This document shows positions 6,065 to 46,903 of a DNA stretch of 64,000 bases, in pieces. The number at the start of each line of letters is the position of its first letter. Within the stretch, counting starts at the first letter, position 1. This DNA comes from an uncultured Candidatus Rokubacteria bacterium (lineage in GTDB: Bacteria; Methylomirabilota; Methylomirabilia; Rokubacteriales; DASRDR01). The notes under the pieces are model-generated. The model had not been told where the DNA came from. It was given only the letters and a program-made list of their open reading frames with translations, and did no database searches. Made by a program: the position numbers and the translations under genes. The stretch covers positions 64,001 through 128,000 of the forward strand of contig CAVPSB010000015.1 in assembly GCA_963708025.1 (NCBI GenBank). The letters run 5' to 3'.

Positions 6065-6101
6065 GGGCGACCTCCTCCTGCGTTTTCGGTAGACTTCCAT
6101 C

Positions 6102-8433: not shown

Positions 8434-8480
8434 CCCGCCGGCTGGTCACCCGAAGTCTTCAGGCGGTCTGCTCTCATTTT

Positions 8481-8515
8481 CCCTCTCCCCCTCTGGGGGA
8501 GAGGGTCAGGGTGAG
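8481..8515. repeat. REP-like palindrome, left part of the IS110 target site
   Basis: CCCTCTCCCC-CTCTG-GGGGAGAGGG followed by TCAGGGTGAG; interrupted exactly at AG 8514-8515. Confidence 0.85.
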
Positions 8516-8530
8516 CAACTGTCTCCGTTG

Positions 8531-9700
<1,170 letters not shown>

Positions 9701-31307: not shown

Positions 31308-32663
31308 TTACACGACGGAGGGGGCCGCCGGGGCCCTCTCCGTCGATCTCAGCTCGAGGGCGGCGGCGTGCAGCACCTCGATCACGTAGTCGATCATGGG
31401 CGGGGTCAGACCCGGGTACACGCCGATCCAGAACACGGAGGTCAGGACGAAGTCGGCGTTCGCCAGGGCCCCGACCAATCGATGCCGCACGTCGCGGTAG
31501 GCGGGCTGGCGGAGCAGGTTGCCGCCGAACAGCAGACGGGTCGCGACCCGGCGATCCTCGAGATACCGGACCACGGCGTCTCGCGTGAACGGCGCGCCGG
31601 GCCGCACCGCGAGCGGAAAGCCGAACCAGGACGGGTCGGCGTGCGGCGTCGCGGCCGGGCGGACGAAGACGTCGTCCAGGTCCCGGAGCCCGGCCTGCAG
31701 CCGGGCGAAGTTCTCGCGCCGGGCCTGGATGAAGCCCGGGAGCTTGGCGAGCTGAGCCACGCCGATGGCCGCTTGCAGCTCGGTCAGCTTCAGGTTGTAG
31801 CCGATGTGCGCGTACGTGTACTTGTGATCGTAGCCGCACGGCAGGTCGCCCAGCCGCCAGTCGAAGCGCTTGCCGCAGGTGTTCTCCTGGCCGGGATCGC
31901 ACCAGCAGTCCCGTCCCCAGTCCCGGAAGGACTCCACCAGGGTCTTGAGCACCGGCTGGTCGGAGAGGACGCAGCCGCCCTCCCCCATGGTGATGTGGTG
32001 CGCGGGGTAGAAGCTCACCGTCGCCAGGTCGCCGAAGGTGCCGACGCTGCGGCCTCGGTAGGAGGCGCCCACCGCGTCGCAGCAATCCTCGATCAGCCAG
32101 AGGCCTCGGCGCCGGCAAAAATCGGTGACCGCGTCGAGGTCGAAAGGGTTGCCCAGGGTGTGGGCCAGCATGACCGCCCGTGTCCGGACCGACCACGCCG
32201 CCTCGAGCTGACGCACGTCGACGTTGTAGGTGGGGATGGTGACGTCCACGAACACCGGGACGAGCTGGTTCTGGACGATGGGATTCACCGTGGTGGGGAA
32301 GCCCGAGGCGACGGTGATCACCTCGTCGCCTGGTCGGAGACGCCGCTCGCCCAGCTTGGGCGACGTCAGGGCCGAGAGCGCCAGGAGGTTGGCGGACGAG
32401 CCGGAGTTGACCAGGACCGCATGACGGAGGCCGAAGAACCGGGCAAAGGCTTGCTCGAATTCGTCGGCGAAGCGGCCGGCGGTCAGCCAGAAATCCAGCA
32501 CGGCGTCGACCGCACCGGTCAGCTCGGCGCTGTCGAAGACCCGGGCGGCGTACGGGACCGGTGACCGCCCCGGGATGAAGGACGCGGGGGGAAAGGCCGC
32601 GGTGTAGTATTCTCGGACGAGCCGGAGGATGTGCTGGCGAAGCGCCTCGGCCTCACCGTTCAT
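31308..32663 (-). CDS. rfbH: CDP-4-keto-6-deoxy-D-glucose 3-dehydrase (E1)
   Basis: [29 protein letters not shown] (His in place of the PLP Lys), Fe-S motif RDCWC..NTC, GYNLK. Confidence 0.93.
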
Positions 32664-32860
32664 GGGCAGCGACCCGATGATGCCGCGGGAGGGCGTCTCC
32701 GAGGGATTCGTGAAGGGGCGGAGACCTTCATGACGGGCATGACGGGCCGATCCGGCGACCCGCCGGCTCTCTCCGCACAGGCGGCGCGCCCCACGCGAGG
32801 ATTATGAGTATGCGGCTTTCGCGTGTCAAGGAAGGGACGGTCGGGTGAGCGGAGCCGGCG

Positions 32861-34651
32861 ATGGATGACACGCGGGCGAGCGTGGCACGCCACGACGGAG
32901 CGCCGGCCGCGGCGCCCGCGTCCGCGGTCTGGGCCAGCGACGTCGTCGCCGACCTGCTGCGGGCGCTCGGACTGCCCTACGTCTGCCTCAACCCGGGGGC
33001 GAGCTTCCGCGGCCTGCACGACAGCCTGGTCAACCATCTCGGCAACCGCGATCCCCGGATGCTGCTGTGCCTGCACGAGGAGCACGCGGTGGCGATCGCC
33101 CACGGCTGGGCCAAGGTGACCGGCCGGCCCCTCGGCGTGATCGTCCACGCCAACGTCGGCCTGATGCACGCGACCATGGCGATCTTCGACGCCTGGTGCG
33201 ACCGGGTGCCGGTGATCGTGCTCGGCGCCACCGGCCCGGTGGACGCGGCCCGGCGCCGGCCGTGGATCGACTGGATCCACACCGCGCGCGACCAGGGCGC
33301 GCTGGTGCGCCACTACGTCAAGTGGGACGACCAGCCGGCGTCCGTCGCCGCCGCCCAGGAGGCGCTGCTGCGCGCGGCGCAGATCGCGAGCACGGCGCCG
33401 CGGGGGCCGGTCTACGTCTGCCTCGACGCCGCGCTGCAGGAGGCCCGGCTCGATTCGCCGCCGCGCCCGCCCGAGGTCGGGCGCTTCCGCCCGCCGGTGT
33501 CGCCGCCGCCGGCGCCGGAGCTGGTGCGTCAGGCGGCGGAGTGGCTCGGCGCGGCGCGGAGCCCGGTGATCCTGATGGGGCGGGTCTCGCGCGACGAGGG
33601 CGCCTGGCGGGAGCGCGTGGCGCTCGCCGAGAGCCTGGGCGCCGCCGTGCTCACCGACCTGAAGGTCGGCGCGGCCTTTCCCACCGACCATCCGCTGCAC
33701 GCCGCGGCGCCCGGCATCTTCCTGTCGCCCACCGCCGCGGCCGAGCTGAGAGCCGCCGACGTGGTGCTGAGCCTCGACTGGGTCGACCTGGCCGGCACCC
33801 TCAAGCAGGCCTGGGGCGCCGAGGAGATCGGCGCCCGTGTGATCCAGGTCTCGCTGGACCAGCTCGTCCACAACGGCTGGAGCATGGACCACCAGGGCCT
33901 GCCGCCGGCCGACCTCTATCTCCTGAGCGAGCCCGACGTGGCGGTGCCGCGGCTCCTGGAGGCGGTGCGGTCACGAGTCCCGCGGCCCCGGCCCCGGACG
34001 GCAACGCCGGTGGCGCCGGCCGGCGCACCGGCCGACGGCCGCATCGCCATCGGGGACCTCGCCCGGACGCTCCAGCAGGCGGTCGCGGGCGAACCCGTGT
34101 CCTTGCTGCGGCTGCCCCTCGGCTGGTCGGGCGAGCTGTGGCACTTCCGCCACCCGCTCGACTACCTCGGCAGCGACGGCGGTGGCGGCATCGGCTCCGG
34201 CCCGGGCATGGCGGTCGGCGCGGCGCTGGCGCTCCAGGGCGGGGGGCGGTTGCCGGTCGCGATCCTCGGCGACGGCGACTACCTCATGGGGCTCACCGCG
34301 CTGTGGACGGCGGCCCACGCGCGGGTGCCGCTGCTGGTGGTGGTCGCCAACAACAACTCGTACTTCAACGACGAGCTGCACCAGGAGCGGGTGGCGCGAG
34401 TCCGCGGCCGGCCGGTGGAGAACCGCTGGATCGGCCAGCGCATCGCCGATCCCGCCCCCGACCTGGCGCTGCTCGCCCGCGGCCAGGGGCTGGCGGGCAT
34501 CGGCCCGGTGGAGAAGCCCGAGGCGCTCGCCCCAGCGCTCGCCGAGGCTGTGGCCCTGGTGAAGCAGGGCCAGGCCTGCGTGGTGGACGTGCGCGTCGCC
34601 CCCGGCTACGGGCCGTCGAGCGCCCTGACCCGCGGCGAGCGCCCGGGCTGA
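32861..34651 (+). CDS. Thiamine pyrophosphate-binding protein (decarboxylase-like)
   Basis: NPGASFRGLHDS, LHEEHAV, LGDGDYLMG…NNNSYFNDE. Confidence 0.88.
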   Translation: MDDTRASVARHDGAPAAAPASAVWASDVVADLLRALGLPYVCLNPGASFRGLHDSLVNHLGNRDPRMLLCLHEEHAVAIAHGWAKVTGRPLGVIVHANVGLMHATMAIFDAWCDRVPVIVLGATGPVDAARRRPWIDWIHTARDQGALVRHYVKWDDQPASVAAAQEALLRAAQIASTAPRGPVYVCLDAALQEARLDSPPRPPEVGRFRPPVSPPPAPELVRQAAEWLGAARSPVILMGRVSRDEGAWRERVALAESLGAAVLTDLKVGAAFPTDHPLHAAAPGIFLSPTAAAELRAADVVLSLDWVDLAGTLKQAWGAEEIGARVIQVSLDQLVHNGWSMDHQGLPPADLYLLSEPDVAVPRLLEAVRSRVPRPRPRTATPVAPAGAPADGRIAIGDLARTLQQAVAGEPVSLLRLPLGWSGELWHFRHPLDYLGSDGGGGIGSGPGMAVGAALALQGGGRLPVAILGDGDYLMGLTALWTAAHARVPLLVVVANNNSYFNDELHQERVARVRGRPVENRWIGQRIADPAPDLALLARGQGLAGIGPVEKPEALAPALAEAVALVKQGQACVVDVRVAPGYGPSSALTRGERPG

Positions 34652-34662
34652 CCCGCGGGCTC

Positions 34663-34781
34663 GAGAGCGTGTGAAGGAATCGGGATTCTCCGGCTCCCCC
34701 CTCCCCCCAGCCAAAGGCCGAAGGCCGTCCATGAGTAGGGGAGGGGGGCTGGGGGGGGTGGGCGGGAGGTCCCAAACTGAG
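34663..34781 (+). repeat. Full-length G-rich gene-junction repeat carrying the ATPase RBS
   Basis: GAAGGAATCGGGA…CCCCCTCCCC-[GGCCGAAGGCC]-GGGGAGGGGG…GGGAGGTCCCAAACTGAG-ATG. Confidence 0.75.
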
Positions 34782-35603
34782 ATGCCGGCAGCGCGCGGTG
34801 ACGGCGGGAGCGTCGCGCTGTCGATCCGAAACGTCAGCAAGCGCTTCGGTCGGGGCGCCGACGCCATCCACGCCCTCGACGACATCTCGCTGGAGGTGAG
34901 CCCGGGAGAGCTCCTGGCGGTGATCGGGCCGTCGGGGTGCGGCAAGTCGACGCTGTTCAACGTCGTCGGCGGCCTGATCGACGACTACCAGGGCGAGATC
35001 CGGGTGGACGGCCGGCCGGTGCGTGGTCCGCAGCGCGACATGGGCATGGTGTTCCAGGAGGAGTCGACCTTCCCGTGGCTCACCACGCTCGAGAACGTGA
35101 TGTTTCCCCTGGAGGTCGGCGGCGTCGCCCGGCCCGAATGCCGCGCCCGTGCCCGGGAGCTTCTGCGGCTGGTGGGGCTGGAGGAGTTCGCCGGGCGGTA
35201 CCCGGCCGAGCTCTCCGGCGGGATGCGCCAGCGCACCGCCATCGCCCGGACGCTCGCCTTCGCCCCCCGGATCCTGCTCATGGACGAGCCGTTCGGCGCG
35301 CTCGACGAGCAGACCCGACTGCTGCTCGGCGACAAGGTATTGCAGATCCAGAGCGAGCTGGGCCAGACGTCGCTCCTGATCACCCACAGCCTGACCGAGG
35401 CGGTGCAGCTCGCCGACCGGGTGGCGGTCATGACGTTCCGGCCGGGACGCATCAAGCGGGTGGTCGAGATCGACCTGCCGCGGCCGCGCACCTCCGAGAT
35501 CGTGGCCAGCGCCGAGTTCGGGCGCCTGGTCGGGCTCCTGTGGGGAGACCTGCGCGAAGAGGCCTCGCGCGGCCTCTCCGAGACCGAAGCCGCCGCCCGG
35601 TAG
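34782..35603 (+). CDS. NitT/TauT-type ABC transporter ATP-binding protein
   Basis: GPSGCGKST, LSGGMRQR, LLMDEPFGALD, ITHS. Confidence 0.93.
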   Translation: MPAARGDGGSVALSIRNVSKRFGRGADAIHALDDISLEVSPGELLAVIGPSGCGKSTLFNVVGGLIDDYQGEIRVDGRPVRGPQRDMGMVFQEESTFPWLTTLENVMFPLEVGGVARPECRARARELLRLVGLEEFAGRYPAELSGGMRQRTAIARTLAFAPRILLMDEPFGALDEQTRLLLGDKVLQIQSELGQTSLLITHSLTEAVQLADRVAVMTFRPGRIKRVVEIDLPRPRTSEIVASAEFGRLVGLLWGDLREEASRGLSETEAAAR

Positions 35604-35609
35604 CGATTC

Positions 35610-35722
35610 GGATCGGGTGTCCAACTCGCCCTCCGACTCCCCCCTCCCCCCCGGTGGGTGGGGGAGGGGGGCCAAAGGGCCGAAGGCCGTCGAACAACAG
35701 GGTAGGAGGGAGGATTCAAGTA
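35610..35722 (+). repeat. G-rich gene-junction repeat
   Basis: CCGACTCCCCCTCCCCCCGGTGGGTGGGGGAGGGGG is shared with 52381-52416, followed by the GGCCGAAGGCCGTCGAAC module. Confidence 0.72.
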
Positions 35723-36688
35723 ATGCACAGCATGAAGTCCATCGTCGCAGTGGCGCTCGGTCTGCTGATGCTGGCGGCGCTGCCGGCCCAGGCCCAGGCG
35801 CCCGATCGGGTCAGGGCCGCGATCGGCCAGCGCGGCAACTGGGACACGATGGTGGTGCCGCAGGGGATCGAGGCCGGCTTCTTCAAGAAGGAGAACCTCG
35901 AGGTCGAAATGACCTGGACGCGCGGCGGCGCCGAGACGCTGCAGGCGCTCATCACCGGCAGCGTGGACGTCGACCTCGCCAACGGAATCCTCGGCGTGAT
36001 CGGCGCCTACGCCAAGGGCGCGCCGATCCGGGTGATCAGCGCCGAGTTCACCGGCGCCCACGACCTGTTCTGGTACGTCAAGGCCGACAGCCCCGTGAAG
36101 TCCATGAAGGACATGGACGGCCGGACCATGGGCTACTCGCGCCCGGGCTCGTCCACGCATCTCGTCTCGCAGTCGCTGGCGGCGGCGGCGGGCGTGAAGC
36201 CCCGCTTCGTGTCGGCCGGCGGCGTGCCCGACAACCGCACCCAGGTCATGTCGGGCCAGATCGACGCCGGCTGGTCCATCCCCCCGTTCAACCTCGAGCT
36301 CCTGGCCGAGGGGAAGATCCGCGTCATCGCCCGCGGCGGCGACGTGCCGGCGCTGTCCGCCCAGACCGTCCGGGTGAACGTGGCCAGCCTGAAGTTCCTC
36401 ACCGAGCGCCGGGACGTGGCGCGCCGCTTCGTGAAGGCGTACCCGACACGATCGACTGGATGTACAAGAACCCGGAGGCCGCCATCGCCTTCTTCGCCAA
36501 GTTCAACAGCGTCTCGCTGGACATCGCGAAGCAAGACCCAGGAGTCCTACCCCCGGCAGGCCATGGCGCCCGAGCCGGTCGCGGGCCTGGAGCAGACCCT
36601 GGCCCAGGCGCTCGAGTACAAGCAGCTCGACAAGCCGATGAGCGTCCAGCAGGCGCAGGGCCTGTTCGACTTCGTCTACAAGCCGTAG
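35723..36688 (+). CDS. NitT/TauT-type ABC substrate-binding protein, two compensating frameshifts (~36442, ~36535)
   Basis: Signal peptide; GFFKKENLEV, GYSRPGSS, SGQIDAG; segment DTIDWMYKNPEAAIAFFAK lies in the alternative frame. Confidence 0.88.
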   Translation: MHSMKSIVAVALGLLMLAALPAQAQAPDRVRAAIGQRGNWDTMVVPQGIEAGFFKKENLEVEMTWTRGGAETLQALITGSVDVDLANGILGVIGAYAKGAPIRVISAEFTGAHDLFWYVKADSPVKSMKDMDGRTMGYSRPGSSTHLVSQSLAAAAGVKPRFVSAGGVPDNRTQVMSGQIDAGWSIPPFNLELLAEGKIRVIARGGDVPALSAQTVRVNVASLKFLTERRDVARRFVKAYPTRSTGCTRTRRPPSPSSPSSTASRWTSRSKTQESYPRQAMAPEPVAGLEQTLAQALEYKQLDKPMSVQQAQGLFDFVYKP

Positions 36689-36816
36689 GGGCGGGGCAGT
36701 TAGTTAGAGCCCCTGACTCCTCCATCGGGCAAGGGCGAGAGAGGAGGTTCTCGCGCATCCGACGACAAGAAGCGGCAGTAACGAATAGACATGCGAAATG
36801 GGTTGAAGCCTACGAG

Positions 36817-36885
36817 GTGTATCCTTTTCGATACACTGCATCGAAACGCGAATTCCTTGACAGGATCTGCTCCGCTTGCTACCGT
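36817..36885 (+). promoter_or_regulatory. Sigma70-type promoter with upstream palindromic operator for the inserted cassette
   Basis: TTGACA 36857-36862, 17-bp spacer, TGc-TACCGT 36880-36885; GTGTATC-N6-GATACAC at 36817-36836. Confidence 0.6.
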
Positions 36886-36943
36886 CGCCTGCACTTCAGC
36901 CGTTCGATTATTTTCGATTATTATAGAACATGGGGAGGGCCAC

Positions 36944-38413
36944 ATGTCTGCCTGTCTCCCATCCCTTCGGTTGCTCCTCACTGTTCTCGGCGCGCTCGCC
37001 CTTGCGCCGATCATCGTCGCACCATGCGCAGCGGCGGCTGACTATTTCCTGCATACCACCCAGGCGGACATTCTGGATCAAACGAGTCCGACCGCAACGA
37101 CCGCCAAGCTCAAGGATTCTCCCGCGGTCAACCGGACGACCTATCAGCCGATCGGAACGTGGTCGGGGGCGCCGACGAACCAGGCCCGCCAGCTGGACTC
37201 GGTCAGCGCGGTGCACGTGTGGGTCGGCCTCAAGAACAGCGACGACCAGGGCACGTATTTCGACGTGCGGGCGGAGGTCCGAAAGAACGGGGTCGTGGTC
37301 GCCTCGGGCGAGACCAAGAACATTCAAGGCGTCACCCGGAATCCGGATCTGGCGAAGGAAGTGGTGGTGGCTCTCGGGCTGACGTCCCCGGTCATGTTCG
37401 ACGCGGGCGACGTCCTGTCGCTCAAGCTCCTCGCAAAGGTGGCCGACAGCGGCGGCCATGCGAACGCGGTCGGCCTGCGGGCCTACTACGACGGCACCAG
37501 CCGCGCCTCGCGGTTCGGGGCCACGCTCACGGCGGCGGCAAGCCTCCAGATCGCGATCACCAGTCCCATGGACGGTGGCGTCCTCCCGGAGCCGGCCACG
37601 CTGGTGGAGGGGACGCTGACCGGTCCGCCGGGCACCGGAGTGACTCTGACGATCACTCTGACCTTCCAGGAACAATCCTTCGAGCTCCCCATTCCGGTTC
37701 AGCTCGCCCAGGGCCGATTTGCAGCCTGGGTTGCCTTGACGGTGGGAGCCAATCGGCTGGTCGCGCGGGCCACCGCACCGACGGGAGCATCGGCCGAGAG
37801 CGCAGCCTCCGTCATCGTGCAGGCGGACGATCCCGAGCTGACCCGCGTGCCCCGGCCCGATGTGTCGCCCACCGTCGGCTTCGCGCCCCTGGCGGTGACC
37901 TTCGGAGGCGTCGCCGCGGCGGCCCCCGAGGTCGTCGTCCTCGACCTCGACGTGGACAGCGACGGCGTTCCCGATTACACTCTGGCCCACTTCGCCACGC
38001 CGCCCCACAAAGTCACGCACGTCTACTCGACCGAGGGTCTCTATATCACGACCATGGTGATTCGGGATGCGACCGGGCAATCGCGGACGACGCGGGTCCC
38101 GATCAACGTCATCCCGGTGCCGGATCTTGGCGCCATCTGGCGTGCCTTCCAGGCGGCGCTGGTTTCCGGGGACATCGACGCGGCGCTTCAGTATGTCGCG
38201 GTAGAAGCCCGCGATCGGTACCGAAGCGCGTTCCTGAATCTGCAGTCAGACCTCCCGAGCATCGCGGCCGCGTTCCAGACGCTGACCGTTCAGGTGATCA
38301 CGAGCGGCTACGGGACGGCCTCGCTCGTCCGGATCCGCGATGGGCTCTCCGAAGGCTTCTTGATCCATTTCGTGCGTGACGGCGATGGCGTCTGGCGTAT
38401 CGCGAGCATGTAG
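36944..38413 (+). CDS. Secreted multidomain protein (unknown N-domain, Ig-like, PKD, NTF2-like C-terminus)
   Basis: RBS GGGGAGG; signal peptide; IAITSP..VEGT Ig strand pattern; PKD-like GFAPLAVTF…THVYSTEGLY; C-terminal W..F..AL..GDIDAAL…F.RDGDGVWRI. Confidence 0.7.
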   Translation: MSACLPSLRLLLTVLGALALAPIIVAPCAAAADYFLHTTQADILDQTSPTATTAKLKDSPAVNRTTYQPIGTWSGAPTNQARQLDSVSAVHVWVGLKNSDDQGTYFDVRAEVRKNGVVVASGETKNIQGVTRNPDLAKEVVVALGLTSPVMFDAGDVLSLKLLAKVADSGGHANAVGLRAYYDGTSRASRFGATLTAAASLQIAITSPMDGGVLPEPATLVEGTLTGPPGTGVTLTITLTFQEQSFELPIPVQLAQGRFAAWVALTVGANRLVARATAPTGASAESAASVIVQADDPELTRVPRPDVSPTVGFAPLAVTFGGVAAAAPEVVVLDLDVDSDGVPDYTLAHFATPPHKVTHVYSTEGLYITTMVIRDATGQSRTTRVPINVIPVPDLGAIWRAFQAALVSGDIDAALQYVAVEARDRYRSAFLNLQSDLPSIAAAFQTLTVQVITSGYGTASLVRIRDGLSEGFLIHFVRDGDGVWRIASM

Positions 38414-38420
38414 GTTGGCG

Positions 38421-39089
38421 ATGTGGCGCGCGGGAATGGCGGTGCTCCTCGCCGTCATCGTTCCGATTGCCTGTGTCGCGGCGGCACCGGCGTTCTACTC
38501 CGGCGCCGCGATTCGGGGCCGCGTAGTGGACGCCGAGAGCCAGCAGCCCCTCGAAGGCGTCCATGTCGTTACCCAGACGGTTCTCAGCACCGGATTCTTA
38601 CACGGGCAGCACGTCGAGCGCTTCCACGTGGCGGAGACCGTGACGAACGCGCGGGGCGAGTACGAGCTGCCGGCATGGGGACCGAAGCCGCGGCCGTTCC
38701 TGTCTGAGCTAGACTATGGCGATCCGCGATTGACGTACTTCAAGCCCGGCTACCGTGCCGAGTTTCGAGGCAATCCGGCCAGCGTCCCGAACGACAACTC
38801 GGTGAGAGCATCCCAGTGGGATGGCGCGACGATCCCCCTGACCCAATTCCGGGGAGCGCCCGAAGAGTGGGCTCGAGAGCTCCGAACGTTGCAACGGAAT
38901 CTCGCGTGGGGTGTCCTTGTCGGAGACGTCGTTCGCCGACGCAACGACTATTGGAAAGCGATGCCAACAATGGTGTGGACGATCGAGGCAGCTCGCCGTG
39001 AGTTGCCAGAGCCGATGCGTTTCATTCCGTTGGACCTTGAGAACTGGGACATCACGGAGCCGGAGTTGAACGCCCTCTTGCCACGATAG
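38421..39089 (+). CDS. Exported protein with carboxypeptidase-regulatory-like (transthyretin-like) domain
   Basis: Signal peptide; IRGRVVDAESQQPLEGVHVV, TVTNARGEYELP, YFKPGY. Confidence 0.7.
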   Translation: MWRAGMAVLLAVIVPIACVAAAPAFYSGAAIRGRVVDAESQQPLEGVHVVTQTVLSTGFLHGQHVERFHVAETVTNARGEYELPAWGPKPRPFLSELDYGDPRLTYFKPGYRAEFRGNPASVPNDNSVRASQWDGATIPLTQFRGAPEEWARELRTLQRNLAWGVLVGDVVRRRNDYWKAMPTMVWTIEAARRELPEPMRFIPLDLENWDITEPELNALLPR

Positions 39090-39100
39090 GGGTCTGCTCA

Positions 39101-41281
39101 ATGAGATTCCATCCGCGGCGCTTCACATGGCTGTCCGTCGCTTCGCTTCTCGCAGTGACAGCGTCGCCGGTGGCCGCGTACGAGTTCGATACGCACGAAG
39201 CCATGTCCGCGGCAGCGTTCCAGCTCAGCTCGCTTCCGTCACGACTGTCGGCCTATGGCATCCGAGTCGGTGACCCGCTGCCGGGACGGGTCAGGATCTT
39301 CCGGTGGGAGCGGCTGAGACCAATCGAGTGGGTCGCTCAAGGTGGCCGAGACGAGGACTGGCCGGACGTGCGAGTTATCAACCATTTCTACGATCCGTAC
39401 AATGACCGCGGGTTCACTGGCTTCGGACAGTTCGGATACAGGGCGCCGGACTGGGCCCTCGAGGACACGCGCGAGTTCCCGGATCAGAACCACTCGTACA
39501 GGGATGCGCGGGCCGCCTTCTACCTGGGCCTCACCGACCGTGACCGGGCGACGCGGGAGCGGAGCCTCGGCTACACGTTCTACGCGCTCGGCCACGTGAT
39601 GCACCTGATTCAAGACATGGCCCAGCCTCAGCACGCCCGCAATGACCCCCATCCGACCTTCTCATCACGGCGGAGCCTTTTGGAGGCATACGTTGACGAG
39701 CTCGTCAATGCGGGCCGGTTCGATCCAGCCGGCGACGTTGCGCCGAGCGCGATTCTCGGCAAGATTGGACGAGTCCGCGACCTTTGGGCGACGGGGACCG
39801 GAACGGCGATGGGGCGACTCGGCATGGCCGCGTTCACGAACGCCAGCTTCGTCTCGGCGGGCACCAACTTCAACGACCTACGAGGTGGAGCCACTGGTGG
39901 CGGCTACCCAGACCCGAAACTCGACCTCCTACAGATCAGTTCCCCCACGCCCAACGCACAGTGCAAGGATGGTGTGCGGCCTCCCTTGGGCTTCCCGCTC
40001 ACGTTCTACGGGAATCGCTTCAGTGATCCCATCCAGGGCGGTGAAATCGAGAACGATCGGATGACGACGTACTCCATCTTCGATCAGCATCTCCACGCGC
40101 AGAACGCAGGCCTTATCTTTGCGCTGAATTGCTTCAACCTGGACAGGGTTGCGGATATCCTCGTTCGCCGGGCAGTGTCCTACTCCGCGGCCCTACTCGA
40201 CTACTTCTTCCGCGGGCGGATCGAGGGACGGCTGGAGCCCCCGCGGAACGGCGAGGCTCGTGCACCGCTTCGGATCGTCAATCCGGCCTCGACCCCGACG
40301 GCGCCCGGCGAGCGCCTGACCGGGACCTTCGAGCTCTACTACGACGCGGCGGACGGGATCCGGGTGCGGCAGGCTCGCTGGGAAGACGTTGATCTTACAC
40401 CCGGCGCTCAGACCGACCCCCTGTCGATCCCCGACCCGCCGATGGATCAGCCAGCCCCGGTCGACCCGGCCCGCTACCTGCTGGTCTTCCGGGGGAAGCT
40501 CGGCGAGGAATCCGACGCAGTGACGGCCACCCAGGTAGACGGCCGCGTCTGGTATCTCCAGCTCGGCTCGCAGACGCGCGATCATGGGGCGCTCGTCGAG
40601 TATCCCCCCATGGTCCTCGAGCCCGGGCCGATCCTCTCGGGGACCCTGACACCCGTCGATCCGGCGGCGGTGTTCGACGGGACGGCGTACGTCGTCATGG
40701 CGGGGGCCGGTCGCACGGCGACGCTGGAGTACGTGTTCACGTGTGGCGGCCCCGAGTTCACGCCGATGGGCATCCAGACCCCGCGGGGCGAAGGGCGCTC
40801 CCTCATGGCGTGGTATCGAGGGCCGGCGGCGATGCGCGGCGATACGGCGGTGCTTTCGGTCAGCGGTCAGGACGAGACACTCACCGTCGAGGGGCAAGGC
40901 TACGTCAGCTCGTTCAGCCCCGTGACGATCGAGGTCGTCCGGTTCGCGGCGCCGGCGTCGCCCGAGGCGCTGGCGGCCTTCACGGTCCTGAACCCGCCGG
41001 TCGTGCAGGCCGTGCTGTCCACCGTCTCGGTGAATGCCCCGTCCTTCGTCGAGGTGGGCCCGATCGATCTCCAAGGGGCCGCCTTCGTGGGAGTGCGCCT
41101 CACCGCGGTGCCGACCGCCCCGGGCCCGATCGTTCCCAGTGGGGTCGGGGGCTTCCTGGACAACATCTGCTTTCACGAGATCGTCCCGCGGTTCGGCCTG
41201 GTCAGCCTGCGGATCTATGGGGGCAGCTTCGGCCAGGGACCCCAGGCGACCATCACGCTGAGAATCCAGCCAGCCCCCTGA
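39101..41281 (+). CDS. Secreted Zn-dependent phospholipase C / S1-P1 nuclease-fold protein with C-terminal beta domains
   Basis: Signal peptide ending PVAA then YEFDTH; EDWPD, NHFYDP, GHVMHLIQDMAQPQH, then H and E candidates, matching the tri-Zn ligand order. Confidence 0.72.
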   Translation: MRFHPRRFTWLSVASLLAVTASPVAAYEFDTHEAMSAAAFQLSSLPSRLSAYGIRVGDPLPGRVRIFRWERLRPIEWVAQGGRDEDWPDVRVINHFYDPYNDRGFTGFGQFGYRAPDWALEDTREFPDQNHSYRDARAAFYLGLTDRDRATRERSLGYTFYALGHVMHLIQDMAQPQHARNDPHPTFSSRRSLLEAYVDELVNAGRFDPAGDVAPSAILGKIGRVRDLWATGTGTAMGRLGMAAFTNASFVSAGTNFNDLRGGATGGGYPDPKLDLLQISSPTPNAQCKDGVRPPLGFPLTFYGNRFSDPIQGGEIENDRMTTYSIFDQHLHAQNAGLIFALNCFNLDRVADILVRRAVSYSAALLDYFFRGRIEGRLEPPRNGEARAPLRIVNPASTPTAPGERLTGTFELYYDAADGIRVRQARWEDVDLTPGAQTDPLSIPDPPMDQPAPVDPARYLLVFRGKLGEESDAVTATQVDGRVWYLQLGSQTRDHGALVEYPPMVLEPGPILSGTLTPVDPAAVFDGTAYVVMAGAGRTATLEYVFTCGGPEFTPMGIQTPRGEGRSLMAWYRGPAAMRGDTAVLSVSGQDETLTVEGQGYVSSFSPVTIEVVRFAAPASPEALAAFTVLNPPVVQAVLSTVSVNAPSFVEVGPIDLQGAAFVGVRLTAVPTAPGPIVPSGVGGFLDNICFHEIVPRFGLVSLRIYGGSFGQGPQATITLRIQPAP

Positions 41282-41378
41282 CGGCGCCCAGACGATCCTA
41301 AGGCGGTGGCTGACGGTCTGGAGACAGGCGGAACGGCCTTTGTTGGGGTCATTCGAGGCTGGGGCGGAGATCCGACAA

Positions 41379-42200
41379 ATGCGCATCAGCCGCAAACAAC
41401 GACTTTGGCGTTTCAAGGAGTCGGAGTCGTCAGGGTGGGGTTGGATCGGCGGGGTGGTGCTGCTGCTGACTGTCTCGACGGTGTCGGTTGCGGAGGAGGC
41501 GCCGAAGTTCGACGGCCGGGGCTGGATGGTCGGGAACCAGCAGAAGAACGCTCGCCAGAGCCTGACGGAGTACGTGTTGCCCGGCCAGACGGTAGACAAC
41601 TGGAGGGAGCTGGTCACCAGCACCGTCTTCTACCAGCCCGTCCCCCTCGCCGCCTTCGTGGAGAGGCTCCACTCGTCCATGTCCCGGGGTTGTCCCTCCC
41701 TCGTCTGGAACGTCATCCGGCAGGATGAGAAGACCGTGGTCTTCGAGTGGCGGGACGCGGGGTGCGGCGGCTTCGAGCCTCAGAGCGAGCTGGACCGGGT
41801 CACGATCGAGAAGGATGGACTCTACCGGCTGGCGTATGCGGCCAAGGTCCAAGGGCCTCTTCCGCCCGAGAAGCGAAAGGAATGGCTCGCCATCCTGGGC
41901 CAGGTTCCACTCGCCGAGCGTTCCGTGGGCGGAACGTCGCCCGCCGGAACGCCGGCCGCCTCGGCCCCAGGCAGCAAGGCAGGGGCGCCGGCAACGAAGC
42001 TGTCCACCGAAGAGCTCGCGGCCGGAGTGCGTCGGAGCGGGTGGACCTGCCCGGCGGGCGTCAAGAGCGAGGTCAAGGGTCAAGTGCAAGGGCCTCAGGG
42101 ACCTCTGACGACGTGGCTCCTCGACTGCTCGAACGGTCAGCAGTACACGGTGCTCGTGGACCCATCCGGCTCCATGACCGCCTTCCAGACGCCCAGGTAG
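41379..42200 (+). CDS. Hypothetical exported protein
   Basis: Hydrophobic signal-like segment; EYVLPGQTVDNWRELVT domain; Pro/Ala linker; small C-terminal two-Cys domain; start uncertain. Confidence 0.6.
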   Translation: MRISRKQRLWRFKESESSGWGWIGGVVLLLTVSTVSVAEEAPKFDGRGWMVGNQQKNARQSLTEYVLPGQTVDNWRELVTSTVFYQPVPLAAFVERLHSSMSRGCPSLVWNVIRQDEKTVVFEWRDAGCGGFEPQSELDRVTIEKDGLYRLAYAAKVQGPLPPEKRKEWLAILGQVPLAERSVGGTSPAGTPAASAPGSKAGAPATKLSTEELAAGVRRSGWTCPAGVKSEVKGQVQGPQGPLTTWLLDCSNGQQYTVLVDPSGSMTAFQTPR

Positions 42201-42202
42201 AC

Positions 42203-42271
42203 GGAAGGGAATCGGCTGCCCGGCTCCCTCTCGGCGGATGGCCGGGGGTGGGTGGGAGGTCCCGAGCTGAG
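42203..42271 (+). repeat. Degenerate gene-junction repeat at permease start
   Basis: GAAGGGAATCGG…GGGGGTGGGTGGGAGGTCCCGAGCTGAG matches the ends of 34663-34781. Confidence 0.65.
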
Positions 42272-43016
42272 GCGCACGGTGGTGAGCACGGTGGCTGGCT
42301 TGGCCGGACTGGCTGTGGTGGCCGGGCTCGTCGAGCTGGTCATCCGGCTGGGCTGGGTCTCGCCGCTGGTGGTGGCGCCGCCGGGGGCGCTGCCGGGCGC
42401 CTTCACCAAGCTCTGGGCCGAGGGCTACGTGCTGGCGCCGTTCTTTACCACGCTGGCCCAGGCCTTCGCCGCGACGCTGCTGGCCGCCCTGGTCGGCATC
42501 CCGTCCGGCTACCTCCTGTGGAAGCGGCCGGCGCTGGGCGTCGCCTACGAGCCCTGGCTGGGCGCCGCCTTTGCCGCCCCCATCATCCTGCTCTATCCGC
42601 TGTTCCTGGTGGTCATGGGGCGGGGCTACGTCACCACGGTGTTCGCCGGCTTCCTGGCGGCGGCGATCCCGGTGGTGCTCAAGACCCGCGAGGGGCTGCT
42701 CGGCGTGCCGCGGGTGCTGATCGACGTCGGTCGCAGCCTGCACGTCCCATCCCGCCAGCTCCTGACGCGGGTCATCCTGCCGGCGGCCGCGCCGACCGTG
42801 TTCACCGGGCTCCGCCTCGGCCTGATCTACGCGCTGGTGAACATCATCGGCATCGAGTACCTGATCGACTTCGGCGGCCTGGGGCGTGTGGTGTCGGAGA
42901 TGCACTACCGCTTCGAGATCCCCGCCATGTACGGGGCTATCTTACTCATCGTGGCGGTCAGCTCGATCTTCCTGCTCGCCCTCCGCCGGGTGGAGCGGTG
43001 GCTGAGACCACGCTGA
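42252..43016 (+). CDS. NitT/TauT ABC permease
   Basis: TM helices; PIILLYPLF, VILPAAAPTVFTGLRLG, GGLG; start uncertain. Confidence 0.88.
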   Translation: MGGPELRRTVVSTVAGLAGLAVVAGLVELVIRLGWVSPLVVAPPGALPGAFTKLWAEGYVLAPFFTTLAQAFAATLLAALVGIPSGYLLWKRPALGVAYEPWLGAAFAAPIILLYPLFLVVMGRGYVTTVFAGFLAAAIPVVLKTREGLLGVPRVLIDVGRSLHVPSRQLLTRVILPAAAPTVFTGLRLGLIYALVNIIGIEYLIDFGGLGRVVSEMHYRFEIPAMYGAILLIVAVSSIFLLALRRVERWLRPR

Positions 43017-43783
43017 CCCGGGCGGCGGGGGCGGTGGGCCGCGCGCGGTGGTTGGCGCCGAGCCGCGTGAGCGCGGCCACCCTGGCCGTGATCCTCGCCG
43101 CCTGGGAGGCGATGGCGCGCTCGGGCCTCCTGTACCAGGACGTGGTGCCGCCGCTGGAGAAGGTGGTGATCGCGTTCGGGCAACTGCTCGCCAGCGCCGA
43201 GACCTATCGCCATCTGGGCGTCACCGCCTGGGAAGTCGGCGCCGGCTTCACCCTCGGGCTCGCCGCCGGGCTCGCCTTCGGCGTCCTGATGGGCGCCCGG
43301 CGCCTCCTCGGCGAGGCGGCGACGCCCTACGTCGAGGGGCTGGCCACCGCGCCCAAGATCGTGTTCCTGCCGATCGCGATGCTGGCGCTCGGCGTGGGGA
43401 TCCAGTCGAAGATCGCGCTGGGGGCGCTGTCGGCGTTCTTCCCGGTGGTGCTCAACACCGCCGCCGGGATGCGCGAGATCCGGCCGGTGCTGATCCAGGT
43501 CGGCCGGAGCTTCGGCCTGTCGGCCTGGCAGATGGCGCGCCGCATCTACCTGCCGGCGCTGGCGCGCTCGGTGGTGATCAGCATGCGCCTCGGCCTCGGC
43601 GTGGCGGTGGTGGGCGTGGTGCTGGCCGAGATCAAGCTGGCCAACCGCGGGCTGGGCTTCCTGGCCATCGAGCACTACAGCCACTTCCGCATCCCGCAGA
43701 TGTACGCGGTGCTGCTGCTCGTCTTCGTGCTGGCGATCGCCGCCAACGGCCTGATCGGCCGCCTGCTGCCGAAGCACTACTAG
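42998..43783 (+). CDS. NitT/TauT ABC permease
   Basis: PKIVFLP, FFPVVLNT, IYLPA..SMRLG, GLG (3' part of ORF 41747..43783). Confidence 0.88.
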   Translation: MAETTLTRAAGAVGRARWLAPSRVSAATLAVILAAWEAMARSGLLYQDVVPPLEKVVIAFGQLLASAETYRHLGVTAWEVGAGFTLGLAAGLAFGVLMGARRLLGEAATPYVEGLATAPKIVFLPIAMLALGVGIQSKIALGALSAFFPVVLNTAAGMREIRPVLIQVGRSFGLSAWQMARRIYLPALARSVVISMRLGLGVAVVGVVLAEIKLANRGLGFLAIEHYSHFRIPQMYAVLLLVFVLAIAANGLIGRLLPKHY

Positions 43784-44421
43784 TCAGGCAGGGAGTGCAC
43801 CCTCGGCGTAGGGCTTCAGGGCGGCATACACGGCGAAGTTCAGCGGGGTCGGGATCCCCACCAGTCGCCCGAGTCGTACGGCGGTCCCATTCAGGGCTTC
43901 GAGCTCCAGGGGACGGCCGGCCAGCACGTCCTGGGACATGGAGCCGCGGGCGGACGGATCCAGGCCCGACACGAGTGCCCAGTGCCGGTCCACACAATCC
44001 TCGGGCAGGACGATCACTCCGGGCGCCACGCGCGTGGAGATGACGTAGCCACGCCACCGAGCACCGGCGCCGGACCGAGAATCCGGGCCAGGCGCTCGGC
44101 ACTGTCGATGCCGTTCTGCAAGGGAAGCACCATCGTGTGGGACCCGATGAGGGGGGAGAGCCGGGAGGCCGCCGCGTCGAGATCGTAGGTCTTCACGCAA
44201 GAGAGGACGAGATCCACCTCGCCGATCGAGGCGGGGTCGTCGGTGGCCGAGACCGCCCGCGTGAAATCGCCGGTGACACGAGACTGGACGGTGAGGCCGC
44301 GGGTACGGAGCGCCTCGAGGTGGGCTCCCCGCGCGATGAAGGTCACGTCTTCCCCCGCCTGTGCCAGCAACCCGCCGAAGGAGCTGCCCGCCCCCCCACT
44401 CCCCATGACGGCGATACGCAT
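43784..44421 (-). pseudogene. Ketopantoate reductase (PanE/ApbA) with frameshift (~44048) and large internal deletion (~44012)
   Basis: MRIAVMGSGGAGS, VKTYD, LQNG joined via APGVI directly to LPED…SMSQD..GRPLELEALNG; about 210 codons versus about 300 typical. Confidence 0.75.
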
Positions 44422-44507
44422 GCCTGTCCTCCTATCTCAGTCCTGCTTCTGGATCGTCATGGTGGACTATTCTGGCATGCGAGGATCAGCCTTCCGGGCG
44501 ATGTGGG

Positions 44508-45779
44508 TCACGGGCGGCGGTTGACGACGATGCGCCCCTCGCGCATCACGACGCGGATCCGGGCGTGGTCCTGGAGCACGCGCACGTCCCGGTCGGGCTC
44601 GCCGTCGACGACGATGAGATCCGCCAGCTTGCCCGGCTCGAGCGTGCCCAGGCGGTCCTCGGCGCCCAGCGCGGCGGCGGCGTTGCGGGTCGCGGTCAGG
44701 AGCGCCTGCTCGGGCGACAGGCCGCGCTCCACCATCAGCTCGAGCTCGTAGGCGTTCTGGCCCCAGTAGTCGCGGAGCGACCGGTAGGTGTCGGTGCCCA
44801 GCGCCATCCGGACGCCGGCCTCGCAGGCGCGCCGGAACCACTTGTCGCCCGTGGCCGCGACCTCCGCGTACTTGCGGACGACCTCGGGCGGCGCCTGCCC
44901 GGCGGCGCGGCCCCGCATCGCCCGCTCGGAGCGGATGGAGATGGTCGGCACCATGAACGCGCCGGTCTCGGCGAACAGGCGGAGGCACTCCTCGTCCAGC
45001 TCGGTGCCGTGCTCGATCGTGTCCACGCCGGCCCGGAGGGCCCGCCGGGTGGCCTCGGCCGTGTGGCTGTGGACGGCCACCCGCTTGCCCACCGCGTGCG
45101 CCTCGTCGACCAGGGCGGTCAGCTCCTCGGCGGTGTAGTTCCGCCACCACAGCTCTTCCTTGTGGCCGGCGGCGCCGCCGGAGGCGGAGGTCTTGAAGAG
45201 GTCGACCCCGAGCCGGATCTCGGCCCGGACCAGGCGCCGCACCGCCCAGGGTCCGTCGGCGTAGACCGATTCCTCGCGCGGCCAGGCGTCCGGGAGCGGC
45301 AGGTCGGAGTGGCCGCCGGTCTGCCCCACCCACCCGGCGACGAAGATGCGGGGGCCCGGGACCAGGCCGATCGCGATCGCCCGGCGAAGCGCCAGCACCT
45401 CGAGGTTGAGGGGGTTGATGGGGCCGGCCAGGTCGCGCACGGTCGTGAAGCCGGCCTCGAGCATCAGCCGGGCGTTCTTCGCGGCGTGGAGCGTGAGAAG
45501 CTGGGTCCGCGCGCTCACCTCGGCCCAGATGGCGTTCGGCTCGTCGGGGTCGAGGACACTGACCAGGTGGACGTGGAGGTCCATGAGACCGGGCATGACG
45601 GTGGCGCCGCTCGCGTCCAGCCGCGGACCGGTCCAGCCGGTCAGCTCGGCCACGGGCGCCACCCGCTCGATCCGGCCGCCCCGGACGACGAGCCCCGCGT
45701 CCCGTCGGGCGGGCGCGCCGGAGCCGTCCCAGAGGCGGCCGGCCAGGACCAGGAGTCCGTCGGGGTCGGGGGTGCTCAC
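44508..45779 (-). CDS. Metal-dependent amidohydrolase (Xaa-Pro dipeptidase-like)
   Basis: PGLMDLHVH, GFTTVRD, GGHSD, AVHSH, TIEHG, LGTD, GKLADL. Confidence 0.88.
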   Translation of the reverse strand: MSTPDPDGLLVLAGRLWDGSGAPARRDAGLVVRGGRIERVAPVAELTGWTGPRLDASGATVMPGLMDLHVHLVSVLDPDEPNAIWAEVSARTQLLTLHAAKNARLMLEAGFTTVRDLAGPINPLNLEVLALRRAIAIGLVPGPRIFVAGWVGQTGGHSDLPLPDAWPREESVYADGPWAVRRLVRAEIRLGVDLFKTSASGGAAGHKEELWWRNYTAEELTALVDEAHAVGKRVAVHSHTAEATRRALRAGVDTIEHGTELDEECLRLFAETGAFMVPTISIRSERAMRGRAAGQAPPEVVRKYAEVAATGDKWFRRACEAGVRMALGTDTYRSLRDYWGQNAYELELMVERGLSPEQALLTATRNAAAALGAEDRLGTLEPGKLADLIVVDGEPDRDVRVLQDHARIRVVMREGRIVVNRRP

Positions 45780-45946
45780 GGCTCGATAGCTTGCCCGAGG
45801 CGGGGGACGGGCCACAAGGGGCGCCCACGGCCTGCAGGAGTCCGCAGCCTCGGCGGCGCTTTGGTGGTACCGTGGTGGTCGGTGGTTAGCACCGCCCAAG
45901 CCCAAGCTCTCGAGTCCGCCCACGCCCCTGGCCGGAGGGGTCCGGC

Positions 45947-46903
45947 GTGAGGCGCCGGCGTCCGGGGGGACGGATGCCACCGCCCCACCGTGATCAACAC
46001 CGCGATCCCCACCGCGACCGGCCCCCGCAGCGGGCGCCCTCCCTCTTCGAGACGCTGACGGCGGTCCATGCTCACGAGCGGCTCCGTCTCGAGAACGACA
46101 GCGGCGACCTGTCCACACGGGTCATGGACCTCGTCACCCCCATCGGGAAGGGCCAGCGCGGCCTCATCGTGGCGCCGCCGCGGGCGGGCAAGACCGTCCT
46201 CCTCCAGCAGATCGCCAAGGCCGTCGCCGCGAATCACCCGGAGGTGAAGGTGATGATCCTCCTGGTGGACGAGCGGCCGGAGGAGGTGACCGACTTCCGC
46301 ATGACCCTCGGGCGGGCGGCGGAGATCTTCGCCTCGAGCAACGACAACTCGCCAGCGGACCACGTGCGGCTGACCGAGCAGGTGATCGAGAAGGCCAAGC
46401 GCATGGTCGAGCAGAAGCAGGACGTCCTGATCCTCTTCGACTCGCTCACCCGGATGACGCGCGCCTACAACAACCAGCTCTCCTCGCGCGGGCGGACGAT
46501 GTCCGGGGGCATCGACGCCCGGGCCTTCCTGGGGCCCCGGGCCTTCTTCGGGGCGGCCCGCGCCATCGACCAGGGCGGCTCGCTCACCATCATCGGCACC
46601 GTGCTGGTGGACACCGGCTCCCGCATGGACGACATCATCTTCGAGGAGTTCAAGGGGACGGGAAACCTGGAGCTCTACCTCTCGCGCGAGCTGGCCGATC
46701 GGCGCATCTTCCCGTCGTTCGACGTGGTGCGCTCCGGCACCCGCCGCGAGGAGCTGCTCTTTCCCGCCGACGAGCTCGAGCGGGTCCGCCGCCTCCGCCG
46801 CCTGCTCTCGGACATCAACCCCCGGGACGCGATGGAAGCCCTCCTGGACCGGCTCAAGCTCAGCAAGACCAACGCCGAGTTCCTGAAGGCCCTCGGCGGC
46901 TAA
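45947..46903 (+). CDS. rho: Short transcription termination factor Rho (ATPase domain only)
   Basis: PIGKGQRGLIVAPPRAGKT, DERPEEVTD, DSLTR, SGGID, EEFKGTGN, SGTRREELL; RBS GGAGGGG. Confidence 0.88.
   Translation: MRRRRPGGRMPPPHRDQHRDPHRDRPPQRAPSLFETLTAVHAHERLRLENDSGDLSTRVMDLVTPIGKGQRGLIVAPPRAGKTVLLQQIAKAVAANHPEVKVMILLVDERPEEVTDFRMTLGRAAEIFASSNDNSPADHVRLTEQVIEKAKRMVEQKQDVLILFDSLTRMTRAYNNQLSSRGRTMSGGIDARAFLGPRAFFGAARAIDQGGSLTIIGTVLVDTGSRMDDIIFEEFKGTGNLELYLSRELADRRIFPSFDVVRSGTRREELLFPADELERVRRLRRLLSDINPRDAMEALLDRLKLSKTNAEFLKALGG

Follow-up and report, generated by a model that had tools for sequence, protein, structure and literature searches.

We analysed a 64,000-nucleotide (nt) stretch of DNA, hereafter the window, from an uncultured Candidatus Rokubacteria bacterium (contig CAVPSB010000015.1, positions 64,001 to 128,000), and within it a cassette of four genes that we call g1 to g4. 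By sequence comparison, the first three are one copy of a widespread three-gene operon. The third encodes a protein with an export signal and with the fold of zinc-dependent phospholipase C (PLC) and the S1/P1 nucleases, and its candidate metal ligands are near-invariant in the family. Taken together, our results are probably best explained by an acquired block of DNA whose trio forms an operon, encoding an exported metallo-phosphodiesterase of the PLC/P1 fold and two exported partners. What is new here is the presence of a known catalytic fold in an undescribed and conserved three-gene system. The genes, in positions of the window, are:

36944-38413, + strand: g1, 489 amino acids (aa), ATG start
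38421-39089, + strand: g2, 222 aa, ATG start
39101-41281, + strand: g3, 726 aa, ATG start
41340-42200, + strand: g4, 286 aa from a TTG start; the ATG at 41379 would give 273 aa

An earlier note on this DNA had described four co-oriented genes with small gaps and signal-like N-termini, and this description held. The gaps are 7, 11 and 58 nt (g1/g2, g2/g3 and g3/g4, respectively), and each of the four predicted proteins opens, as read from composition, with a basic segment that leads into a hydrophobic stretch, with small residues ahead of a likely cleavage point.

Fold, active site and mature N-terminus of g3

The AlphaFold2 (AF2) model of g3 was built on a 43-member family alignment (A1). Its pLDDT was 75.4 overall, with high values for residues 27-488, and the region 484-726 was poorly modelled. 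We divided the protein as follows:

residues 1-26: signal peptide
residues 27-372: PLC/P1-fold catalytic domain
residues 373-483: immunoglobulin (Ig)-like beta-sandwich
residues 484-726: variable C-terminal region

A Foldseek search with the model returned zinc PLCs as all of its best matches, alpha-toxin and PC-PLC at the top. In VIA-align comparisons, the model matched C. absonum alpha-toxin (1olp) with Z 17.6 (root-mean-square deviation, rmsd, 2.9 over 209 aligned residues), C. perfringens alpha-toxin (1ca1) with Z 17.1, B. cereus PLC (1ah7) with Z 17.0, and Listeria PlcB (8cqm) with Z 15.8. In the alignments with 1olp, 1ca1 and 1ah7, residue 27 of the model fell on chain residue 1. S1/P1 nucleases were matched with Z 11.4-12.7 over about 205-214 residues, the highest of these values belonging to S1 nuclease itself (5fbg). 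The structural searches upheld the tri-zinc PLC/P1 fold that the earlier note had proposed, and a sequence profile of the 43 family members agreed with them in matching 8cqm, the Listeria broad-range phospholipase C, at E = 1.3e-6. That match spanned HxxxD...QPxH...E, with a weaker stretch at HFYDP; the NHFYDP motif of g3 paired with HFYNP of PLC, and H95, H168, D172, H178 and E195 of g3 aligned with PLC.

The ligand motifs occur in the order claimed for the 726-aa protein: Y27-x4-H32 (Y27-EFDT-H32), E85-D86, N94-H95-F96, H168-x3-D172 (H168-LIQ-D172) and Q175-P176-Q177-H178. H184 and E195, absent from the earlier motif list, were likewise invariant or nearly so. We counted the nine candidate metal ligands, whose codons lie within 39179-39685 (+ strand), among 193 family members, namely 120 homologous proteins and 73 locus open reading frames (ORFs) of at least 450 aa, with gaps from truncated sequences excluded:

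position 27, Tyr or Phe: 172 of 173 aligned
H32: 172 of 173 aligned
D86: 182 of 182 aligned
H95: 185 of 185 aligned
H168: 189 of 189 aligned
D172: 190 of 190 aligned
H178: 190 of 190 aligned
H184: 190 of 190 aligned
E195: 189 of 190 aligned

The nine metal ligands of PLC are residue 1 (through its N and O), His, Asp, His, His, Asp, His, His and Glu. In g3, the N-terminus reads ...LLAVTASPVAA/YEFDTH, making Tyr27 the predicted residue 1 of the mature protein. A hydrophobic core preceded the corresponding aromatic residue in 143 of the 148 members with enough upstream sequence, and the residue just before it (-1) was A, G or S in 139 of 148, forming a site like that of signal peptidase I; the median position of the aromatic residue was about 25 in the 94 called proteins of this set. 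We predict that this residue is the first of mature g3, like Trp1 of PLC and P1 nuclease. In enzymes of this fold, the free amino group and the carbonyl of residue 1 bind one of the zinc ions; because of this, g3, as a Sec-exported metallo-phosphodiesterase, would become active only after export, when cleavage of the signal peptide exposes Tyr27 as residue 1. The enzyme, made competent in this way, would bind three metal ions and hydrolyse a phosphodiester.

The catalytic domain is larger than that of PLC (~345 vs ~245 residues) and contains a conserved insertion of ~100 residues (within about 200-343) that carries the motifs NFVSAGTNF and RMTTxSxFDQ. The Ig-like sandwich that follows was closest to GH2 domains (Z about 6.9), and no PLAT/C2-type match to it appeared among the matches listed.

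Three kinds of result count against a PLC-like enzyme. Firstly, the Pfam model Zn_dep_PLPC (PF00882) scored 17.1 bits on g3 (E = 0.0055), below its 26.8-bit cut-off, and reached E <= 0.1 in only 8 of the 43 family members (best 3.7e-5). Secondly, the position of the site-2 (penultimate) His of PLC is Ser192 in g3, where the invariant H184 is a candidate for its replacement. Thirdly, Y27 and H32 are spaced like what we take to be W1 and H6 of P1 nuclease, and not as in PLC. This spacing, together with a fold common to the S1/P1 nucleases and SmNuc1 (Z 11.4-12.7) and a g1 protein that looks like an adhesin or matrix protein, would favour an alternative in which g3 acts as a secreted enzyme of the S1/P1 type, a nuclease or nucleotide phosphodiesterase serving for example in the turnover of extracellular DNA or biofilm matrix. 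However, the structural matches to PLC were clearly stronger (Z 15.8-17.6), and PLC alone was found by sequence profile and Pfam: S1-P1_nuclease (PF02265) matched none of the 43 members at E <= 0.1 and had no PDB profile match either. The pairing of NHFYDP with HFYNP of PLC also speaks against a nuclease, which we regard as improbable. We concluded that g3, as modelled, is nearer to zinc PLC than to the S1/P1 nucleases, and that its family, because it fails the gathering threshold of PF00882, is a separate branch of the PLC/P1 superfamily. The Pfam model for Het-C likewise matched none of the 43 members at E <= 0.1.

This branch is large. A homology search with g3 returned 229 proteins that have the first ~470 residues in common and diverge beyond them; among the matches listed, all those with a source name were hypothetical proteins. 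At E <= 1e-3, an exhaustive profile search found 8,403 cluster representatives, and 3,467 were left at the stricter limit of E <= 1e-30; no Pfam model passes its threshold for the family. The C-termini of the relatives are variable: some gave no match, and others consist of Ig or TIG modules or of beta-propellers such as PD40. That is, the polymorphic toxin C-termini for which the earlier note had suggested a survey did not materialise, since the variable modules are non-catalytic. None of 120 g3 homologues was fused to the C-terminal domain of g1 or to g2, and no longer proteins matching g2 were found, which is weak evidence against fusions.

Conservation of the trio and the nature of its partner genes

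A scan of one genome per species gave at least 490 g3 relatives, from which we kept the best-scoring 80 loci; these are not a random sample, and many come from metagenome-assembled genomes (MAGs) with frameshifts or short contigs. The carriers included Methylomirabilota/Rokubacteria, Nitrospirota, Burkholderiales and other Betaproteobacteria, several gammaproteobacterial lineages and Acidobacteriota MAGs, as well as Binatia, Gemmatimonadaceae, delta-type lineages and Hyalangium (myxobacterial) MAGs. Two of them, Steroidobacter flavus and Peristeroidobacter soli, are in culture.

Three approaches showed that g1 and g2 accompany g3. By tblastn, 61 of the 67 loci with at least 1.6 kb upstream of g3 had a g1-like sequence (C-terminal half), 49 had a g2-like sequence and 47 had both, without exception on one strand and arranged as g1, g2, g3. 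All-against-all clustering of ORFs from the 80 loci gave three widely shared clusters, g3 (79 loci), g1 (67) and g2 (57); the one ranking after them was antisense and occurred in 12, so that no conserved neighbour beyond g1 and g2 was found in this set. Using profile hidden Markov models, we found an upstream ORF ending in the C-terminal PKD and NTF2-like module of g1 in 64 of 66 loci, and a g2-like gene within 1.5 kb before g3 in 57. Order and strand of the trio were kept in at least 53 of the 66, across phyla, as expected from the proposal in the earlier note that these genes form a module.

The association also held in the reverse direction. In the 8.17-Mb genome to which the window belongs, the NTF2 profile gave two matches only, each a short distance upstream of a g3-family gene. 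In 25 relatives, 18 of which carry the g3 family, it gave 30 matches, at least 21 of them on the contig and strand of a g3 gene and within about 2.5 kb upstream; the others lay at contig ends or could not be placed relative to g3. The g2 profile had six matches in the window's genome, of which five were g2-like genes beside the g3 genes of the window and of contigs C16 and C26, and the sixth was on C22.

The reading of these genes as an undescribed module proved right for g1 to g3. A search of the full-text literature, with subscription journals outside it, yielded no account of the trio or of the g3 family, and Pfam, NCBIfam and PADLOC had no entry passing for it; NCBIfam gave no match for any of g1, g2, g3 and g4.

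We examined the g2-g3 junction at 50 loci by choosing the start nearest the g2 stop that gave a signal peptide of 14-45 residues, a rule that favours short gaps. The g2 stop overlapped the g3 start by 4 nt at 32 of the 50 junctions, and 47 lay within -8 to +20 nt. Judged from these junctions, g2 is translationally coupled to g3. These data bear on the view that there is no functional unit at all, only four neighbouring exported proteins, with the PLC likeness of g3 a relic of fold without catalysis. The fact that all Pfam matches lie below gathering thresholds would suit such a view. On the other hand, it does not account for an order and strand conserved across phyla, for start and stop codons that overlap, for nine ligand positions invariant in about 190 sequences, or for NTF2 and g2 profiles that associate reciprocally with g3 genes. 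The conservation data already contradict it, and we consider it very improbable.

The g1 protein, whose N-terminus reads MSACLPSLRLLLTVLGALALAPIIVAPCAAAA/DY, was described in the earlier note as an Ig, PKD and NTF2-like protein. We found the following parts:

N-terminus: signal-like
residues ~1-193: beta-rich region
residues ~200-295: Glucodextran_B-like Ig domain
residues ~300-390: PKD domain
residues ~392-489: NTF2/cystatin-like domain

For the window protein alone, all Pfam matches were sub-threshold. The family profile and the AF2 model nevertheless confirmed the description, the former for PKD and the latter for the NTF2 fold. A profile of the C-terminal module matched the PKD domain of ColH collagenase at E = 3.2e-8, and PKD_4 was found at E <= 5 in 23 of 33 g1-family members (best 7.4e-7). 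The model of residues 200-489 (pLDDT 91.2) showed Ig and PKD domains followed by a terminal alpha+beta domain, which matched 3gzr with Z 10.3 (rmsd 2.6, 96 aligned), 3f7s with Z 10.1, 2gxf with Z 10.0 and the NTF2 domain of RsgI9 (7sjy) with Z 9.9. At least ten further NTF2/cystatin-like entries matched this domain (model residues 193-290), including scytalone dehydratase and ketosteroid-isomerase-like proteins. No Pfam model passes for it, DUF4864 being found in 2 of 33 family members (best E = 8.7e-4), and an ESM Atlas search with it gave no usable named match.

The relatives of g1 range from ~300 to 1,900 aa. Their C-terminal module is constant and always ends in ...DGVWR[IL]xxM (...DGVWRIASM in the window), whereas their N-terminal parts vary widely and include Big_7, Big_13, PKD, cadherin-like, beta-propeller, beta-helix and ice-binding-like adhesin domains. 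Two loci (L113, G012:C11; L114, G001:C104) have a four-gene variant in which g1 and g2 are separated by a second, shorter PKD and NTF2 gene of about 270 aa.

The g2 protein has a hydrophobic N-terminus up to Cys18 (a possible lipobox, PIAC), a transthyretin-like (CarboxypepD_reg-like) beta-sandwich at ~26-110 and a C-terminal region. The likeness to a carboxypeptidase regulatory domain asserted in the earlier note can be retained in part: PF13620 (CarboxypepD_reg) matched g2 at E = 1.8e-5 and 25.4 bits, which is below its 32.3-bit cut-off, but a sub-threshold match recurred in 13 of 18 homologues. A PDB profile search with g2 gave nothing significant (best E 0.18), and the ESM Atlas returned unnamed hypothetical clusters only, 1 of 30 matches having an 18% share of CarboxypepD_reg; neither search revealed a recognisable relative of the C-terminal half. 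A lipobox-like motif ending in Cys occurred in 22 of 34 aligned homologues, the closest relative of the window's g2 having no Cys there. Many proteobacterial members have two further conserved Cys, which fits an oxidising compartment.

The position before g3, which we call the slot, was more changeable. The tandem paralogues of the small upstream protein for which the earlier note had proposed to look do exist, more than one copy of g2 being present in 10 of 66 loci. At L005, L019, L076 and L052, the extra g2 is part of a partial tandem duplication, g2 plus a 5' g3 fragment, before the complete g3; L071 and L075 also have 5' g3 fragments. These fragments are 115-337 aa long and the duplicated parts are nearly identical, so the partial duplications could represent real amplification of g2 or artefacts of metagenome assembly. 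In six loci that lack g2 (L020, L065, L066, L070, L072 and L075), a g1-g3 gap of 400-600 nt holds an ORF for a small protein (110-150 aa) in which 3-4 membrane helices are predicted. The ORFs of these membrane mini-proteins are:

L020: 5001-5448
L065: about 1204-1615
L070: 5284-5740
L072: 1169-1620
L075: 6289-6640

L066 is a near-duplicate of L065, and the mini-proteins otherwise have no detectable similarity except for those of L072 and L075. We regard them as candidate alternative partner or immunity genes. Displacement by unrelated proteins, combined with amplification, is the pattern of immunity genes beside membrane-active toxins.

The inserted block, its control region and related cassettes

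The four genes interrupt an operon for an ATP-binding cassette (ABC) transporter:

34671-35603: ATPase gene
35723-36688: substrate-binding-protein gene
36689-42251, + strand: inserted block with g1-g4, 5.56 kb, between the binding-protein gene and permease 1
42252-43016: permease 1
about 42998-43783: permease 2

In two relatives of the same family (L094, from G005, and L095, from G002), the orthologues of the transporter genes (79-87% and 54-66% identical) are contiguous, from the ATPase and the binding protein to permeases 1 and 2. The junction between binding protein and permease 1 measures about 100-200 nt there and holds no match to g1-g4. Within the block, third-position GC (GC3) was 0.827 in g1, 0.758 in g2, 0.818 in g3 and 0.836 in g4, compared with 0.913-0.960 in frame in four flanking genes; the greater share of A/T at third codon positions that the earlier note had seen is therefore real (0.76-0.84 vs 0.91-0.96). 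The overall GC profile dips across the block from ~0.72 to 0.60-0.68. The uninterrupted operon of the two relatives and the reduced GC3 of the block led us to conclude that 36689-42251 is an insertion, and on these comparisons it is horizontally acquired and foreign to the operon. The repeats flanking it are only short and at chance level, and no mobile-element signatures were found there.

Upstream of g1, we noted these elements:

36826-36846, + strand: inverted repeat TTTCGAT-N7-ATCGAAA with perfect 7-nt arms
36857-36862, + strand: -35-like TTGACA, followed by a 17-nt spacer
36880-36885, + strand: -10-like TACCGT
36903-36922, + strand: 10-nt tandem repeat, two copies of TTCGATTATT
36932-36939, + strand: ribosome-binding site GGGGAGGG ahead of g1

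The block may have its own sigma-70-like promoter at this place. Similar hexamers (TTGACA-17-TAGCAT) are kept ahead of the paralogous cassette that this genome has on contig C26, as is the first arm of the inverted repeat, TTTCGATACACTG, but not the second arm or the tandem repeat. A simple promoter scan missed the proposed TTGACA-17-TACCGT site and gave two internal promoter-like sites, and a simple terminator scan found no convincing terminator. The tandem repeat had 2 matches vs 0.12 expected, and together with the inverted repeat it may form a site for a regulator. The word TTCGAT is common to both repeats.

The window's genome has four g3-family loci, those of the window and of contigs C16, C26 and C39:

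C16 (L088, G000:C16): g1-like, g2-like and g3-like genes, the last interrupted by TGA and TAG stops
C26 (L089, G000:C26), 4614-8929: g1-N-terminal protein, two divergent tandem g2-like genes and a 578-aa g3-like gene
C39 (L087, G000:C39): at a contig end, with the N-terminal AY-x4-H segment in a different frame

The interrupted g3 copies on C16 and C39 could be pseudogenes or assembly errors. The C26 cassette begins with a protein of 217 aa that is 78% identical to residues 1-193 of g1 only, and a further divergent g2-like gene (47% identical) lies on the other strand.

The fourth gene, g4, probably starts at the ATG at 41379 (273 aa), and its N-terminus, ...GGVVLLLTVSTVSVA/EE, suggests an exported or membrane-anchored protein. 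It had been counted as a member of the module, and this we could not sustain. Homologues of g4 numbered 129; they are about 260 aa long, reach 89% identity (in metagenomes) and are patchily distributed, some being pre-annotated as PF27161; the Pfam copy we searched, which did not include PF27161, had no match. There was no match to g4 in any of the 80 g3-family loci, in any of the 25 relatives or elsewhere in the window's genome. Because of this absence, and because g4 has much nearer homologues than the trio does, we concluded that g4 is an unrelated passenger in the inserted block.

Both strands of 32660-46363 contain many long overlapping ORFs, for example one of 390 aa on the minus strand at 36908-38080. 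Overlaps of this kind commonly arise at about 72% GC; the set is not widely conserved, and one antisense cluster is common to 4 loci only.

Possible roles of the trio and comparison with known systems

We propose that g2, made just before g3, would bind it in the periplasm and restrain or escort it, and that a membrane mini-protein in the slot would meet g3 there in the same manner. The NTF2-like domain of g1 may dock g3, and the variable N-terminal modules of g1 would act as binding modules that tether or aim the enzyme. As to function, we lean, with somewhat less than even confidence, towards an extracellular attack of the phospholipase C type on foreign membranes, with self-protection provided by the slot gene. 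We favour this reading because g3 is closer to PLC than to nucleases, because the slot gene behaves like a protective gene, because the accessory modules are diversified and several cassettes occur per genome, and because the block is mobile.

Other observations speak against an attack on membranes. Unlike classical immunity genes, g2 precedes its enzyme gene and matches it in degree of conservation. The 80 loci share no dedicated secretion genes near the trio, and export beyond the periplasm is an assumption of ours. The g1 of the C26 cassette has neither PKD nor NTF2. The ORFs of the membrane mini-proteins are our own predicted gene calls, and 3 of 66 loci (L042, L068 and L074) have neither g2 nor a mini-protein before g3: g1 abuts g3 at L042 and L068, and L074 lacks both partners. 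At L042 and L068 at least, the alignment of g3 covers the catalytic region, so protection may be non-obligatory or supplied by g1.

The same partner genes can also be read as parts of a scavenging complex on the cell surface or in the periplasm, which would free phosphate or head groups from phospholipids or other organophosphodiesters, with g1 binding particles or polymers and g2 anchoring the enzyme to the outer membrane. To judge from their record titles, the hosts are bacteria of soil, sediment and groundwater; the Ig, PKD, propeller and beta-helix modules in g1 relatives are of the carbohydrate-enzyme type and typical of substrate-binding accessories; g2 is often a lipoprotein; and g2 and g3 evolve at similar rates, both being 30-50% identical to their relatives. 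We nevertheless think this role unlikely. No phosphate-regulon, transporter or phosphatase gene was co-conserved with the trio in the ORF clustering of the 80 loci, and several paralogous cassettes with diversified partner modules occur per genome. In addition, tandem amplification of g2 and its replacement by mostly dissimilar membrane mini-proteins would be unexpected for a simple anchor.

If g3 does attack membranes, the trio would give uncultured phyla of the soil, for instance Rokubacteria and Nitrospirota, a common and unrecognised system of antagonism or defence against grazers; a role in scavenging phosphodiesters would have a bearing on phosphorus cycling. A more elaborate form of the membrane-attack reading, to which we would give little credence at present, has the trio as a Sec-dependent, targeted phospholipase weapon, of a new and very widespread kind, in diderm bacteria of soil and groundwater. 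The enzyme would be armed by signal cleavage, held in check in the periplasm by the slot protein (a transthyretin-like lipoprotein or a small membrane protein serving for immunity) and handed to the NTF2 dock of a modular adhesin. Were this so, the swappable Ig, PKD or propeller head of g1 would select the target cell or surface. Thousands of protein clusters (8,403 representatives at E <= 1e-3), hypothetical in all cases listed with a source name, would gain a fold, a predicted active site and a proposed activation mechanism, and two near-obligatory partner genes define a three-component system and a testable model.

One likeness to g2 is offered by the accessory proteins of secreted phospholipases (PhlB, PlcR), with which it has no sequence or fold relation. 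A second likeness is to the periplasmic immunity lipoproteins of antibacterial lipase effectors (Tle/Tli; PMC13133936). As in the trio, a small exported or lipidated protein stands beside a membrane-active hydrolase, often in tandem and at a fixed ratio. There is no relation of sequence or fold in this case either, g3 uses Sec and not type VI secretion, and g2 lies upstream.

The slot gene resembles the immunity genes of polymorphic toxin systems in that it is adjacent and coupled to the enzyme gene, in tandem in 10 of 66 loci, and replaced in six loci by mini-proteins with 3-4 transmembrane helices. It differs from them in lying upstream of the enzyme gene and in being about as conserved as the enzyme. 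In g3, moreover, the catalytic domain is the constant part and the C-termini vary. We considered a classical polymorphic toxin locus and rejected it, the catalytic domain being N-terminal and conserved.

A precedent for toxin use of the PLC/P1 fold is Het-C, which Zhang et al. 2012 (PMC3482391) predict to be a divergent branch of the PLC and S1-P1 fold serving as a secreted toxin. We view Het-C/Tox-HET-C as a parallel case: the motif listed there is HxxxDxxxH, compared with HxxxDxxxxxH in g3, and the catalytic domain of g3 is N-terminal and conserved rather than a swappable C-terminal cassette.

The S1/P1 nucleases (5fbg; 8qjm, SmNuc1; 3sng, TBN1) have the same fold and the same tri-metal ligand order as g3, and differ from it in the weaker structural match (Z 11.4-12.7) and in the absence of a sequence-profile or Pfam match.

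The closest comparison is with the zinc PLCs (PF00882: 1ah7, 8cqm, 1ca1, 1olp). Common to them and g3 are the all-alpha fold (Z 15.8-17.6), the pairing of the mature aromatic residue with chain residue 1, the HFYDP-like, HxxxD, QPxH and ...E motifs, Sec export and, in alpha-toxin, a beta-sandwich after the catalytic domain. In contrast, g3 falls below the Pfam threshold, has a longer catalytic domain (about 345 vs about 245 residues) and an Ig-like sandwich (best Z 6.9 to GH2 domains), and has its first His at +5, Tyr or Phe for Trp at position 1, and Ser192 at the site-2 His position with the invariant His184 elsewhere. It is also encoded with two conserved partner genes, an arrangement not known for the zinc PLCs. 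Three features, namely the possible relocation of a His, Tyr or Phe instead of Trp1 and an insertion of about 100 residues, widen the range of known tri-metal PLC/P1 enzymes.

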